Positions 2,203 to 8,415 of a stretch of 9,859 nt of DNA are shown one piece after another. Below the pieces are notes generated by a model. The model saw only the letters and a list, made by a program, of their open reading frames with translations, searched no databases and was not told where the DNA came from. The stretch is from positions 1 to 9,859 of the forward strand of contig SUPR01000114.1 in assembly GCA_005191425.1 (NCBI GenBank), in the 5' to 3' direction. Every line of letters starts with the position of its first letter. Position 1 is the stretch's first letter. The stretch is from Candidatus Helarchaeota ASGARD archaeon Hel_GB_B. Lineage in GTDB: Archaea; Asgardarchaeota; Lokiarchaeia; Helarchaeales; HEL-GB-B. Made by a program: the position numbers and the translations under genes.

Positions 2203-2688
2203 ATGTGGGAAATAACCGAAGAAGAATTATTGAGATTAAAATGTCAACAATTGTTTGTACCGCTAATTTACTCAGAAGTTGTTGCTCGAATAATTGATAG
2301 ATGGCCAGATAATGTCGAAAAAAAATTAAGAGAATTCGGTAGAAGAATAGGAAAAGGTATTTTATCAATGTGGATTCCAAAGAACACTGATTCTGTTAAG
2401 TCTATAGTCCAAGAAACATACAAATTTCTTTTAAAACAAAAAGCACCTGTAGAAATGAAAAAAGATGGAAGGACATTGATTTTACGCGATAAAAAATGTA
2501 TTTTATGCTGGGAAGTTACAAATGCGAATTTTCATTATTGTACACCTTATGGAAGTCTTTTGGAAACTTTTGTAAATAAATGTAGGGAAACAAATCCGAA
2601 ATTACCAAAAATTTGGGTCGAAACTACGAAATCAAGAGCTAAGGGCGATAGTTATTGTGAACATGTAATCCACATTTTGGAAGAGTGA
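2203..2688 (+). CDS. V4R-domain / TRAPP-Bet3-fold-like protein (copy 1)
   Basis: Helix motif LREFGRRIGKGIL (G-x-x-I-G as in Bet3/V4R), followed by CILC, HYC and the C-terminal V4R-type signature VETTKSRAKGDSYCEHVI. A GTGA RBS-like motif lies upstream. Confidence 0.85.
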   Translation: MWEITEEELLRLKCQQLFVPLIYSEVVARIIDRWPDNVEKKLREFGRRIGKGILSMWIPKNTDSVKSIVQETYKFLLKQKAPVEMKKDGRTLILRDKKCILCWEVTNANFHYCTPYGSLLETFVNKCRETNPKLPKIWVETTKSRAKGDSYCEHVIHILEE

Positions 2689-2694
2689 TTTAAA

Positions 2695-3330
2695 ATGGCA
2701 GAACGAGAAAAAGTAGGCTGGTTTCAGAGATTTTTAGGCAATATTGGTAAGCATTTCTATTGGTGGAAAGCAAAAAAAATGAGTGCACTTATGATGACTT
2801 ATGACTTTTTAGAATGCGTAAGAATACTTGTAGAATTAAATAATAATGATATACCGGCTGCATTAGAAGATTTTAGAGAAATAGGAAAGTCCGCAGGTTA
2901 TACAGTAGCTACTGAATTGTTAGGCCCCGGTGAATTAATTTTTTCAAGAAATATCAAAGATGTCCCATTTATGTTAAAAGTGGCTTGGTTCATCTTTTTT
3001 GGAGAAGAGATAAAATCGATAAAATTTCATGACAAAACAGATACTGAACCTATTAAAATTACCTGGACTTTAGATAGGTGCATTTTCTGTGCAGCACTTA
3101 AAAAAGAAAAAGAGCTAGTATTTAACCGAGAAACTATGAAAACTGATGAAACTAAGTTGACTTATGGAAGTGTCGTGGCAGGTGCTATGGAAGGTGCTTT
3201 AAATGCAATTCTTGAATATGTAAAGAGCCCGTATTATGGAAAGATATATGAAACTAAATGTTTACAAGCAGGAGACCCATTTTCTGAATATACTGCATAT
3301 TTTTATGAAAAAGATTCAAATGAGAATTAA
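2695..3330 (+). CDS. V4R-domain / TRAPP-Bet3-fold-like protein (copy 2) with an N-terminal extension
   Basis: FREIGKSAG helix, CIFC, VVAGAMEGAL and YETKCLQAGDPFSEY are V4R-type motifs. Starts 6 nt after the copy 1 stop, with GAGTGA overlapping that stop, which suggests an operon. Confidence 0.85.
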   Translation: MAEREKVGWFQRFLGNIGKHFYWWKAKKMSALMMTYDFLECVRILVELNNNDIPAALEDFREIGKSAGYTVATELLGPGELIFSRNIKDVPFMLKVAWFIFFGEEIKSIKFHDKTDTEPIKITWTLDRCIFCAALKKEKELVFNRETMKTDETKLTYGSVVAGAMEGALNAILEYVKSPYYGKIYETKCLQAGDPFSEYTAYFYEKDSNEN

Positions 3331-3382
3331 TTATAGTTTGAATAATACTACAGAAAAAGAATTAACGACTAAAATAGATTAA

Positions 3383-3438
3383 AATTATAATCGAGATTTC
3401 TACGATTATATGGATATTAGAAAGTTAATTATAATCGA
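3383..3438. repeat. Three copies of TATAATCG (direct and inverted) between convergent genes
   Basis: AATTATAATCGA occurs at 3383-3394 and 3427-3438. TATAATCG (3386-3393) and CGATTATA (3403-3410) form an 8-bp inverted repeat. Confidence 0.55.
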
Positions 3439-3439
3439 T

Positions 3440-4108
3440 TTATTCATTAACAATTTGAATTACTCTATGAATATTAACCCAACCCTTTTTTTGTAGTTGC
3501 CTAATTATCATTTCAACTTTTAATTTAGGCAATTTAATTTTTTGTGCAATATCATCAACAGAATTTGTCCCATCGCATAATTCAAGTATCTTGGCAGTAT
3601 CGATCTTGAATTTTTCTTTATTTGTTATTTCTTTCATTAGGAAGGGCACTTTTCGAGCTCTACTTCGGTGTTTAACGACTTTCTTGGGTTCTTCTACTTT
3701 TTTTACAGCTGTCGTTTCAGTTATCCGTAATTCATTTGATATTGGTGAAATTTCTCCAATTAAAGAACTAATTTTTTGTGAAAATTCATTCATAATTTTC
3801 TTAAATGCTAATAATTGACCAATTGGACCTTTCTTAGAGTGAACTATGATTAGAAAGTTATTATCTGGCTTAAAAAATGCAAGGTTTACCCCACCAATTG
3901 GGATTGAGTAATCACCAAGCTGTAATAAATTAAAATTTTTAATTGTAAAATTTATAATATAATCTTTATAAGGTATCAACTCATTAGACATATACCTAAA
4001 TTTTCCATTAGCATCAATAATTCCTATATATGGCCTAGAAAACATTAATGAACCAAGTTTATTTGTTATATCTTTATTAATTTCATAAAATAATTGTTCC
4101 TCACTCAA
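3440..4108 (-). CDS. Roadblock/longin/profilin-like N-terminal domain plus C-terminal winged helix
   Basis: The N-terminal ~115 aa show an alpha-beta-beta-alpha-beta-beta-beta-alpha pattern (YIGIIDANGKFRYMS; YSIPI; LAFFK; FLIIVHS). A charged linker leads to VP...ILELCDGTNSVDDIAQKI...V..II..L..KGWV, a winged-helix signature. The CDS is well supported; the fold call comes from pattern recognition only. Confidence 0.8.
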   Translation of the reverse strand: MSEEQLFYEINKDITNKLGSLMFSRPYIGIIDANGKFRYMSNELIPYKDYIINFTIKNFNLLQLGDYSIPIGGVNLAFFKPDNNFLIIVHSKKGPIGQLLAFKKIMNEFSQKISSLIGEISPISNELRITETTAVKKVEEPKKVVKHRSRARKVPFLMKEITNKEKFKIDTAKILELCDGTNSVDDIAQKIKLPKLKVEMIIRQLQKKGWVNIHRVIQIVNE

Positions 4109-4358: not shown

Positions 4359-5915
4359 TTGAATAAAATTACCCAAAAAAAGAATTTTTATCAAGATTAT
4401 TTAATAAGGTCGAAATTTATGAATAATCTAAATGAAGAAAACATAAAATATCGGAAAAAATTATCAAAACACTTCCTTTATCCACTTTTTTTTCCAAAAA
4501 ATATTGTAATTGTAGGGGCCAGTACAAAACCCAATATGGGTGTTTCACTCTATTTAGATACTTATAAAAAGTATGGATATGGAATAAATTCTAAACTTCC
4601 TAATATTTATCCGGTAAATCCAAAATATACAAACGAAATGATTTATGGTCTATGGAAATGTTATAAAGATTTGAAGTCAATTCCTGAACCGATTGATATT
4701 GTAATTTCTTGTATAAATGCAAAATATGTTCCAAATTTATTAAAAGAATGTATTAAGGTAAAAGCAAAATTTTTAATTATATATACAAGTGGATTTTCTG
4801 AAGTTGGTAAACGAGGAATAAGTTATGCCAATGAAATAAAAAATATTTTAAAGAAAAATAGAATAACTCGGGTACTGGGGCCAAATTGTTTTGGGAGTTT
4901 TAATTCACAAATAAATCTTAGCTTCAACCGATTTGCTGATTTATACCAAGGAAATTTTTCTTTATTTAGTCAATCTGGTGGTTTTGCTAATCGTACAATT
5001 GAAATTTCAAAAAAGAGGGGGTTAGGAACAAATTTTGGTTTAAGTGTTGGTAATATGGTAGATATTAACCAAAATGACTTCTTAGAATTTATTGAAATTG
5101 ATGATAAAACAAAAGTAGTTGGATTCTATTTAGAAACAGTGGGTGATTTAGAATCTGGTCGTAAATTTTTTGAAAAATTACGGAATATGACAAATAAGAA
5201 ACCAGTAGTAATTTTGAAAGGTGGAAAAAGTCAAGTGGGTAAACAAGCATGTATATCGCATACAGGGTCAATTGCTGGTTCAAATCAAATTTATGAAAGT
5301 GTATTTAAGCAAACAAATGTTATTTCAGTTAAAAGTTCGTTAGAATTTTATGATATCAGCTATTTATTATCAATTTTACATCCGGATAAATTAATTAAAG
5401 GTAAAAACATCTGTTTAATAGTACCAGGAGGAGGGAATTCTGTAGAAATGGCGGATCTTTTAAGCGGAATTGGGTTCAATTTTCCAGAGATTTCGAATTC
5501 AACCCAAAAAAAGTTAGAAAAACTTCTTTTTGATGTTAATACAAGTTTTAAAAATCCTGTAGATGTTGGTACTTATGGCATCCTTCCAGAAATGCTATTA
5601 AATACAATTAAATTAATTTTAAAAGAAGATAAAATTGATATAATTATTGCAATATTACAATTATCACGAATATTAGGTCTTCAATTTGGTCACGACAAAT
5701 TCACTGGTATGTTTGCTAGATCACTCGGCAGATTAAGTAGAAAAACAGATAAAACATTTTTTATTATTCCTATGATAGATGACGATAACAATAAGACTGT
5801 TAGAGAAAATAACCAACTTAAAAAATACCTAAATAAGTATCGTATTCCACATTTCCCTTCTATTGATAGATTAGTTAAGTCGCTAGAATATTATCAGAAA
5901 TATTATAAATTATAG
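4359..5915 (+). CDS. acdA: Acyl-CoA synthetase (NDP/ADP-forming) alpha subunit, CoA-binding domain protein; probable start ATG 4419
   Basis: CoA-binding Rossmann start IVIVGAS, plus YPVNPK, GFSEVG, RVLGPNCFG, SQSGG and SVGNMVD. The phospho-His motif SHTGSIAG (His codon 5259-5261) and the later NPVDV motif are present. No ATP-grasp domain is present. Confidence 0.9.
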   Translation: MNKITQKKNFYQDYLIRSKFMNNLNEENIKYRKKLSKHFLYPLFFPKNIVIVGASTKPNMGVSLYLDTYKKYGYGINSKLPNIYPVNPKYTNEMIYGLWKCYKDLKSIPEPIDIVISCINAKYVPNLLKECIKVKAKFLIIYTSGFSEVGKRGISYANEIKNILKKNRITRVLGPNCFGSFNSQINLSFNRFADLYQGNFSLFSQSGGFANRTIEISKKRGLGTNFGLSVGNMVDINQNDFLEFIEIDDKTKVVGFYLETVGDLESGRKFFEKLRNMTNKKPVVILKGGKSQVGKQACISHTGSIAGSNQIYESVFKQTNVISVKSSLEFYDISYLLSILHPDKLIKGKNICLIVPGGGNSVEMADLLSGIGFNFPEISNSTQKKLEKLLFDVNTSFKNPVDVGTYGILPEMLLNTIKLILKEDKIDIIIAILQLSRILGLQFGHDKFTGMFARSLGRLSRKTDKTFFIIPMIDDDNNKTVRENNQLKKYLNKYRIPHFPSIDRLVKSLEYYQKYYKL

Positions 5916-6531: not shown

Positions 6532-6999
6532 TTATAAAGCATAATCAAGTTTTTCATTACATTTATGGCAGAATTTTGCACCTCTAAAATTTATTTCACC
6601 ACATTTTTTACATTTCCAATTATTTTCTTCCCATTTTATCCATTCCAAATCACCTAATTCACGTCTTACTTGGGTCGAATTTATCATATATTTTGTAGCG
6701 AGGGGGTACGGATAATTTTTTATTTTATTACAAGGGAATTCATCACATTGATAACACCCAGCCAACTTTTTATCTGCACAACATTTTCTAATATCACAAA
6801 CATCACAAAAATTAAATCTTTTATTAGATAAACACCCTTCACATTCTATTAATTCAGGTTTAGTCCAATATGCTTTTGCTAATTTCTCTTTTAACTTTGA
6901 ATCATTATTTTTATAGGCATAAAATATTCCGCAAACACCACAATAAAGCCCACAAGGTGCTAATAGATTATTTTTTATGTTAGTGCCCAATTTTATCAC
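6532..6999 (-). CDS. DUF3795-family Cys-rich metal-binding protein with a C-terminal zinc ribbon
   Basis: APCGLYCGVC, CEGC, CDVCDIRKCC and GCYQCDEFPC match the DUF3795 pattern. An extra WKCKKC...CHKC module follows. There are 16 Cys in 155 aa. Confidence 0.85.
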   Translation of the reverse strand: MIKLGTNIKNNLLAPCGLYCGVCGIFYAYKNNDSKLKEKLAKAYWTKPELIECEGCLSNKRFNFCDVCDIRKCCADKKLAGCYQCDEFPCNKIKNYPYPLATKYMINSTQVRRELGDLEWIKWEENNWKCKKCGEINFRGAKFCHKCNEKLDYAL

Positions 7000-7164: not shown

Positions 7165-8415
7165 GTGGACATAACAATGTTCAGAAATGATTTAAAAATT
7201 CAAGAAATAATAAAAAAAGAATATAACGACCAAGAATTTATTAATTTGATAAAAAAAACAATAAAGGATACAACTGAACATAATTCTTTTTATAATGATA
7301 TAACAAAAAAATTAGAATTCAAAATCGATAATCTTAATAAAATAGATGACCTATTTGATATCCCTTTTATCCCCACGAATTATTTTAAAGAAAGTGCACG
7401 CTTATTTAAAAAATTACTAAAAGTCCCTGAAAGCTCTTTAATTCATTGGAATGTATCATCATGCACGAGTGGAGACCCTTCTTTAGTGGGAGTAAATAAA
7501 AATGATGATGAATTTCTAATTCAAATGAGTGAAAAATTATATTTAGATTTTATCCCTCGAGATTGGGAACGAGCCAAGATATATTGCTTTTCACCAAGTG
7601 CAAAAATGCTGAATAGAATTGTAATGAGATATACTAAAGTAAGGCCCATTCATGCATATACTAGTAATTTTTATTATGTCACTAAAAAGATGGCTAAATT
7701 AGAATATTTGATTAAATTTTCGATCTTGAAGGCATTAAAATCAATAATTGTAACGCGTAGTCTCGTAGGTGCTTTCGATGTTAATTCTAATTTAGTATTA
7801 AAAACAATTGAAAAAAACATTAAGAAACCTAAAGACAAACAAATTTATATAGCATTGGGTGGAGGAGTTCAACTCATTAAAAAATTTATTGATTTAATGA
7901 AAGAACGAAAAATTTCATATAATTTAGGCGATCAATTTGATGTAGTTAGCGGTGGTGGAGGATGGGGTGGACATAAAGCACAAATGAAAACGGAGCCTGT
8001 TAATAAAGAGGAATATGTTTCAGGTCTTGTTGAATTGTTTGGGACTGATTCTAAACAAATAATCGATATTTATGGGTTTACTGAAACGCCAATAATTTTC
8101 ATGGGCCATTGGTCAAAAAAATATAATGATTTTATAATGCATTGCCCACCATTTGCAAGAATTTTAGTACGGGACCCAGATAAATTAGAACCGCTAAAGA
8201 AAAAAGGAGATAGGGGGTTATTAGAAGTTATTACGCCATTTGGTGCAGAAGCCTCTGTAAATCATGCAATTTTAGTTGATGATTCAGTTGAATTAATTTC
8301 GATGGACAAATGCCCAGAATGTGGATATAAGGGTACAACATTTAGAATTCTTGGCAGAGTCGTAGATAAGGAAGGTATTGGATGTTCCTCAATAATTACA
8401 TGGTTAAACGGTTGA
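7165..8415 (+). CDS. luxE: LuxE-like acyl-protein synthetase (ANL adenylating superfamily); probable start ATG 7177
   Basis: IPFIPTNYFK, P-loop-like SSCTSGDPS, DIYGFTE, GLLEVITP...HAILVDD, CPECG and FRILGR are present. The C-terminal GCS (Cys codon 8383-8385) corresponds to the LuxE acylation site. GGGTGG RBS-like motif at 7163-7168. Confidence 0.87.
   Translation: MDITMFRNDLKIQEIIKKEYNDQEFINLIKKTIKDTTEHNSFYNDITKKLEFKIDNLNKIDDLFDIPFIPTNYFKESARLFKKLLKVPESSLIHWNVSSCTSGDPSLVGVNKNDDEFLIQMSEKLYLDFIPRDWERAKIYCFSPSAKMLNRIVMRYTKVRPIHAYTSNFYYVTKKMAKLEYLIKFSILKALKSIIVTRSLVGAFDVNSNLVLKTIEKNIKKPKDKQIYIALGGGVQLIKKFIDLMKERKISYNLGDQFDVVSGGGGWGGHKAQMKTEPVNKEEYVSGLVELFGTDSKQIIDIYGFTETPIIFMGHWSKKYNDFIMHCPPFARILVRDPDKLEPLKKKGDRGLLEVITPFGAEASVNHAILVDDSVELISMDKCPECGYKGTTFRILGRVVDKEGIGCSSIITWLNG

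Follow-up and report, generated by a model that had tools for sequence, protein, structure and literature searches.

Several described systems resemble parts of the locus reported here. Roadblock and longin domains serve as GTPase platforms, as set out in the available text of two studies (PMC3747258; PMC3521125), and roadblock domains are common in prokaryotes, where eukaryote-like function need not follow (PMC12962969). In NPRL2 and NPRL3 (Npr2 and Npr3 in yeast; GATOR1/SEACIT), a longin platform is followed by three winged helices (PMC3521125), and the GAP longins NPRL2, FLCN and SMCR8 are marked by a conserved arginine finger together with a GP motif that precedes strand 2 (PMC12290439). 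Asgard NPRL2-like proteins have been described as a platform followed by an NPRL2-specific C-terminal domain, longin-based and found mainly in the Thor and Loki lineages; the available text of that study also reports expansions of DENN paralogues with non-eukaryotic architectures in the Hel lineage, and it does not mention a link to TRAPPC3-like genes (Liu et al., bioRxiv 10.1101/2020.10.19.343400). The core of TRAPP is a longin heterodimer (TRAPPC1/C4), which has no winged helix and is flanked by Bet3-fold subunits. In Asgard archaea, roadblock, NPRL2-like and TRAPPC3-like proteins have all been reported before. According to the accessible part of PMC10933270, GTPase genes generally lie outside the operons that contain TRAPPC3-like genes, and finding the partners of these Asgard proteins by genome layout is hard; a linkage between winged-helix and TRAPPC3-like genes is not described in that part. 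Our literature search, which covered few subscription journals, found no paper describing such a linkage.

The window analysed here is the entire 9,859-bp contig (C18) of a Helarchaeales genome of 3.5 Mb. A roadblock and winged-helix gene, hereafter the target, converges in it on a TRAPPC3/Bet3-like gene pair, A and B. The features are as follows.

2203..2688, + strand: TRAPPC3/Bet3-like gene A, 161 aa (Thor-TRAPPC3 7yh3, E 7e-17)
2695..3330, + strand: TRAPPC3/Bet3-like gene B, separated from A by 6 nt, 211 aa (yeast Bet3, E 1e-5)
3331..3439, no strand: 109-bp gap separating the stop codons of gene B and the convergent target
3440..4108, - strand: target, roadblock plus NPRL2-type winged-helix gene, ORF with a TTG start, 222 aa (homologues; AlphaFold model)
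3455..3664, - strand: NPRL2-type winged helix by profile, residues 149-218 (matches human NPRL2 173-233)
3665..3751, - strand: variable, probably flexible linker, residues about 120-148 (pLDDT 60-78)
3752..4102, - strand: predicted roadblock-fold domain, residues 3-119 (AlphaFold model and structural matches)
4359..5915, + strand: NDP-forming acyl-CoA synthetase-like gene, divergent from the target; synteny control

The layout described in an earlier, sequence-only reading of this DNA was borne out. The model shows an alpha/beta domain at residues 3-117, a low-confidence linker at about 121-148 and a winged helix at 150-218, the target is convergent with the pair, and no GTPase gene was seen across the whole contig. 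Nine proteins matched the ORF at E 7e-35 or better in a homologue search, the close homologues being 36-64% identical across the full length, and the orthologues begin at the same position as its TTG start. Since strong matches and shared starts were both found, the ORF is a real gene. The ESM Atlas contains its sequence; a feature search there assigned the target no function and had no result for two further domains. A terminator-like hairpin was sought in the 109-bp gap and none was found.

An AlphaFold2 model of the target was built from 73 sequences. The N-terminal domain (pLDDT 92) has the element order helix-strand-strand-helix-three strands-helix (helix 3-22, strands 26-32 and 37-40, helix 42-61, a short strand at 66-67, strands 76-79 and 85-91, and helix 96-117). 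It had been read as roadblock or longin-like, and a comparison of roadblock, longin and profilin folds had been suggested, with GAF/PAS as examples of an unrelated fold. When this comparison was run, the roadblock ranked best. The best structural match was a Lokiarchaeota roadblock (8yql; Z 12.9, rmsd 2.4, 104 residues aligned), and other matches were the Rag C-terminal roadblock (Z 11.1), MglB (10.8) and profilin (10.3), as well as LAMTOR. The roadblock half of the earlier assignment therefore stands at the superfamily level, by element order and the match to 8yql, whereas the longin half was rejected: the model opens with a 20-residue helix and longin chains align only from residue 23. The accessible text of PMC10933270 describes longins as being without the first helix of the roadblock. 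GAF/PAS was also rejected as the best fold, the best GAF match reaching Z 8.9.

Known Asgard and bacterial roadblocks and their relatives (8yqk/8yql, MK-D1, Thor, MglB, LAMTOR2/3 and the Rag C-terminal domain) are alike in fold and element order (Z 9.5-12.9), but the target is only 5-16% identical to them, is fused to a winged helix and has no match to Pfam Robl_LC7 (PF03259) at E up to 1. Robl_LC7 was also absent from the 25 Pfam families listed for the 73 family members. Hence, the modelled domain is a roadblock at the fold level only, outside the Robl_LC7 sequence family. In the family alignment, the position of the GP motif before strand 2 holds G35 followed by a variable non-proline residue. 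No conserved arginine finger was found, the sole arginine column above 30% being R25 (55%), which lies before strand 1.

The linker to the C-terminal domain differs in length and sequence among homologues. The C-terminal domain is laid out as a P-x-L strand, three helices with a CDG turn and a wing strand. A profile made from 113 copies of this domain was run against the PDB sequences, and its best natural match was human NPRL2 173-233 (whole-sequence E 5e-6, in two stretches). Yeast Npr2 was matched at E 3e-3 and a MarR-like protein at 2e-4, within a range of 2e-4 to 3e-3 for MarR/Lrp-type proteins. The domain had been likened both to NPRL2 and to PqqD/RRE, and of these NPRL2 ranks higher, the PqqD/RRE match being partial (profile E 1.3e-3, positions 18-46 of 70; Pfam E 0.044 over 21 residues). 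The motif given in the sequence-only reading is present, but its spacing is CDG-x6-IA-x9-V in place of x5 and x7, and the pattern as first written fails to match; the x6/x9 spacing is common to the target and human NPRL2. Pfam HTH_NPRL3 was found in 17 of the 73 family members; the target alone is below the cut-off, which its relatives P0073 and G000:C102 exceed. By sequence profile, the C-terminal domain is thus an NPRL2-type winged helix. The full-length alignment gave just weak generic HTH matches in a PDB sequence search, and the winged-helix-only profile was required. The top row of that profile search, 8vd6 ('CAP repeat'), adds together five stretches that are each below threshold, and it was disregarded. 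In Foldseek the top three entries all belonged to SEA/GATOR1 (8adl, 9h4q and 9o5a, E 2-3e-4; 8adl_S is Npr2), in searches that used the whole chain and so barely test the winged helix. Pfam NPR2 had a single weak match in the target's own genome, on a paralogue (E 0.076).

The target shares with NPRL2/NPRL3 the succession of a platform domain and an NPRL2-type winged helix. However, its platform has the roadblock order, it has one winged helix rather than three (PMC3521125), it carries neither the GP motif nor the arginine finger (PMC12290439), and its domain orientation differs (rmsd about 11 Å across both domains). Since the longin, the additional winged helices and the GAP motifs are all missing, the target lies outside the NPRL2 family proper.

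The neighbours, previously recognised as a V4R pair, proved to be TRAPPC3/Bet3 homologues by profile, at the E values listed above, and are homologous to Thor-TRAPPC3 (7yh2, 7yh3) and eukaryotic TRAPPC3/Bet3. Zinc-type cysteines are conserved in the pair, and C99, C102, C113 and C152 of gene A are invariant in 38 homologues. The A-then-B order is fixed across about 50 Helarchaeales loci, with 4-10 pairs per genome; the target's genome has three A-B pairs besides the one in the window. This fixed pair resembles the TRAPPC3/C6 or C3/C5 heterodimers, and by analogy with TRAPPC3/C6, A and B likely form a heterodimer, which is probably zinc-containing with a ligand cavity. Whereas TRAPP is built on its longin core, the partner linked here is a single roadblock and winged-helix gene, and the module has no longin heterodimer of that kind. 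A complex prediction for gene A, gene B and the target with their own alignments gave a best score of 0.12 against a mark of 0.32 and was counted neither way. In Lokiarchaeia f3/f4 (L202-L205), the B gene of the pair has an extra C-terminal region of ~280 aa, for which no Pfam or Atlas match was found.

Across the seven Helarchaeales genomes, 4 of about 50 pairs adjoin a roadblock and winged-helix gene, and most copies of both families are unlinked. The linked cases span three families and three orientations, and all have the short single-winged-helix form. They are convergent in the target's family (also L001, L005 and L167), co-directional in G304 (L088) and divergent in G294 (L081; also L173, L175 and L178). 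The divergent layout recurs in no fewer than four separate contigs. Outside the target's family, 2 cases were found against 0.17 expected (P about 0.01, a rough value). Within that family, the acyl-CoA synthetase-like neighbour is as well conserved as the pair, so family-level synteny alone proves nothing. This neighbour is kept solely within the target's own family and is not thought to belong to the proposed module. In two genomes, the nearest relatives of the window's pair have no adjoining roadblock and winged-helix gene. In neither tree do the linked copies group as a single clade, and a number of inner branches are poorly supported, so no order of events is claimed.

The sequence-only reading had named gene-neighbourhood statistics across Asgard genomes as a check, and these showed that the co-location with V4R pairs is conserved. 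The sample consisted of 24 other Asgard genomes, chosen to cover families and thus non-random, and 15 of them contained TRAPPC3-like genes. An NPRL2-type winged helix lay within 1 kb of 13 of the 25 TRAPPC3-like loci in these 15 genomes, compared with 0.06 expected under uniform placement, related genomes not being independent. The 13 linked loci come from 8 genomes of 6 families. The linkage between TRAPPC3-like and winged-helix genes is hence conserved far beyond chance across Asgard archaea. When loci were chosen only by a match to the target-family profile, a same-strand TRAPPC3-like gene adjoined 16 of 28 (12 of the 16 from one family). In the Jordarchaeia-like genome G038, a full-length target homologue (hhalign 98.9%, E 4e-17) directly precedes a TRAPPC3-like pair on the same strand, at a distance of 7 bp (L194), and a second homologue overlaps a single TRAPPC3-like gene (L195). 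A 497-aa ORF in G002 (L192:1136-2629) fuses an N-terminal domain, an NPRL2-type winged helix and a TRAPPC3-like domain; by eye, its N-terminal domain has a longin-like start with the GP motif.

The association is not universal. No winged-helix neighbour was seen for the TRAPPC3-like pairs of Lokiarchaeia f3/f4, f10 and f11, and the gene next to a Jordarchaeia homologue with two winged helices (P0086) encodes a hydrophobic protein, not a TRAPPC3-like one. Hydrophobic, membrane-like ORFs also flank L191, L196 and L197. No GTPase gene was found within about 3 kb of the winged-helix/TRAPPC3 loci L192-L198 (n = 7). A rough pattern count puts the small-GTPase-like ORFs of the target's genome at about 28. 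The domain preceding the winged helix varies by lineage (roadblock, longin-like or zinc ribbon), whereas the winged helix and the TRAPPC3-like neighbour are constant. Since the N-terminal platform is exchanged between lineages, the winged helix is the constant partner.

The roadblock and winged-helix family is present in several copies in all seven genomes of the order, and the target's genome has five with a roadblock domain. The target has one winged helix, its paralogues have two or three in tandem, and longin domains precede the winged helix in some other proteins. C-terminal additions in the paralogues include a zinc ribbon plus a DENN-fold domain, a profilin-like domain, a UFC1-like domain and double zinc ribbons; fusions with membrane domains also occur. 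The DENN-fold domain matched folliculin (Z 10.9), DENND10 (9.4), C9orf72 (8.5) and SMCR8 (8.4), well above unrelated rows, and the profilin-like and UFC1-like domains have weak Pfam matches. The occurrence of the winged helix among eukaryotic-signature domains fits a protein-interaction module.

Given both folds, the neighbours' homology to TRAPPC3/Bet3, the conserved linkage, the exchange of platforms and the DENN fusion in paralogues, we propose that the target is a two-module, non-catalytic adaptor working with the TRAPPC3-like A-B pair, a reading to which we assign a probability of about 0.5. The NPRL2-type winged helix would engage the TRAPPC3/Bet3-like A-B dimer, and the roadblock would be an interchangeable platform, used for dimerisation or for docking one more signalling component. 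The likeliest such component is a small GTPase or a further roadblock/longin protein whose gene lies elsewhere. The absence of the GAP motifs suggests a scaffold rather than a GAP. In the target's family the gene runs opposite to the pair, so the link is kept there without co-transcription. We lean slightly towards a physical contact made by the winged helix; an effect on a GTPase, although plausible, is somewhat doubtful. A TRAPP/GATOR-like physical complex, as the sequence-only reading had suggested, might form and might have GEF or GAP activity. A broader and more tentative version, which on balance we think unlikely, is an Asgard-wide complex in which the winged helix would tether a roadblock/longin platform to a TRAPPC3-like dimer and regulate a small GTPase. 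The building blocks of GATOR1 and TRAPP would once have been together in it, and this locus would be the Helarchaeales A-B version.

As the main alternative, the same genes could encode a split one-component transcription regulator, in which the winged helix binds DNA, the roadblock dimerises or senses, and the V4R/TRAPPC3-fold pair is a ligand or redox sensor. A winged helix occurs with a GAF-related domain in CodY, and HTH with V4R is an established architecture, fused in MsvR (PMC3729527). CodY aligns over both domains of the target (Z 8.0, 166 residues, rmsd 19.7), and generic families match the winged helix (TrmB at E 9e-5, besides the MarR/Lrp-type matches above). The winged helix is also basic (16 K/R vs 8 D/E), with a conserved patch (K166, R203, K207, K208, R215) that could bind nucleic acid, and the ligand cavities and zinc of Thor-TRAPPC3 are likened to PoxR in the available part of PMC10933270. 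However, the matches of the target to MsvR and CodY are weaker than those to NPRL2 and the roadblocks. NPRL2 is not only the best natural match but the only top match that spans the N-terminal P-x-L strand and the DG turn, and GAF lies 4 Z units under the roadblock. Family members differ in the first half of the recognition helix, and the winged helix occurs in tandem arrays and in fusions with DENN, profilin-like and membrane domains. A search of the upstream DNA of the target and of the pair in orthologous loci found no conserved palindrome or operator, a weak test in diverged AT-rich DNA. We therefore consider such a regulator improbable.

The adjacency itself could be the relic of an ancestral operon, inverted and uncoupled, with the target acting alone or with other roadblock/longin proteins as one copy of a family expanded in Helarchaeales. 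This would agree with the convergent arrangement, with the minority of linked copies and their scatter in both trees, and with synteny that reaches a metabolic gene in the target's family. Such a relic is nevertheless unlikely, since the adjacency has persisted, or arisen anew, in three families of Helarchaeales and in three orientations, each time involving the short form; the excess of cases outside the target's family and the retention of the divergent arrangement also argue against it. A functional linkage independent of GTPases is a further alternative: the pair would bind a lipid or small molecule, and the roadblock and winged-helix protein would relay this to membrane proteins or metabolic enzymes. 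The module lacks a GTPase gene, membrane-like ORFs lie beside three of the loci, one clade adjoins mcrBGA, and ligand binding is proposed for Thor-TRAPPC3 in the accessible text of PMC10933270. Yet the metabolic neighbours vary between lineages, and in paralogues the same roadblock and winged-helix head is fused to DENN, which is a GTPase-binding module according to the available text of PMC3521125. We regard this relay as very unlikely.

For the adaptor reading, the conserved linkage, the fusion and the platform swap around a constant winged helix name specific partners and a domain to test. This locus contributes a Helarchaeales form with the A-B pair, its inverted orientation and the family tie to DENN. 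Should a complex form and act on a GTPase, it would bear on the pre-eukaryotic assembly of TRAPP and of GATOR1/DENN-type regulators; the linkage offers a testable candidate for the archaeal precursor of complexes that regulate GTPases. Were the winged helix to bind DNA, its likeness to NPRL2 would suggest that the domain arose in an archaeal regulator.

Several paralogues and their surroundings were observed in addition. P0040 and its relatives (L066, L067, L070, L071, L074, L075 and L126-L129; ~490 aa) consist of roadblock, winged helix, a CxxC..CxH zinc ribbon and DENN; this layout is folliculin-like with the roadblock replacing the longin, and no clear copy was found in the target's genome. 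In G000:C36:7341-8171 (L012) and P0136, a roadblock is joined to a domain resembling UFC1/E2 (Pfam E 9e-5, short of the cut-off), and the gene converges on an ORF with an E1/ThiF-like N-terminus by eye. Three winged helices precede a C-terminal profilin-like domain in L139-L141, P0049, P0061 and G000:C118:20828-22357, with an optional roadblock head; the profilin-like assignment comes from a weak Pfam Profilin match on P0061. A paralogous clade (L002, L003, L048, L049, L176, L181 and L189) lies upstream of a TPR gene, CitG and two Ras-family GTPases, which are a few genes away, and has no TRAPPC3 neighbour. The TPR gene is on the opposite strand and is absent in L003. The L048 genes match contig C63 of G294, a genome of the window's order, and the title Candidatus Deferrimicrobium is likely a mislabel, not a sign of transfer to bacteria. 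In L173, L175, L178 and L083, the roadblock and winged-helix gene converges on mcrA of an mcrBGA cluster; the gap is 12-25 bp in the first three, which also have a divergent TRAPPC3-like pair.

In the window itself, two small unannotated ORFs on the + strand (1385-1573, 62 aa with paired cysteines; 1784-1990, 68 aa) have counterparts with 57-58% identity in the corresponding positions of L001 and are probably real genes. A truncated ORF on the - strand (2-268) has a 221-aa homologue in G304 (L088; E 1e-11), where it is encoded ~6 kb away from the linked module. A DUF3795 protein with a zinc ribbon (6532-6999) and a LuxE-family acyl-protein synthetase (7165-8415) are encoded further along the window, and both also occur near the module in L001.
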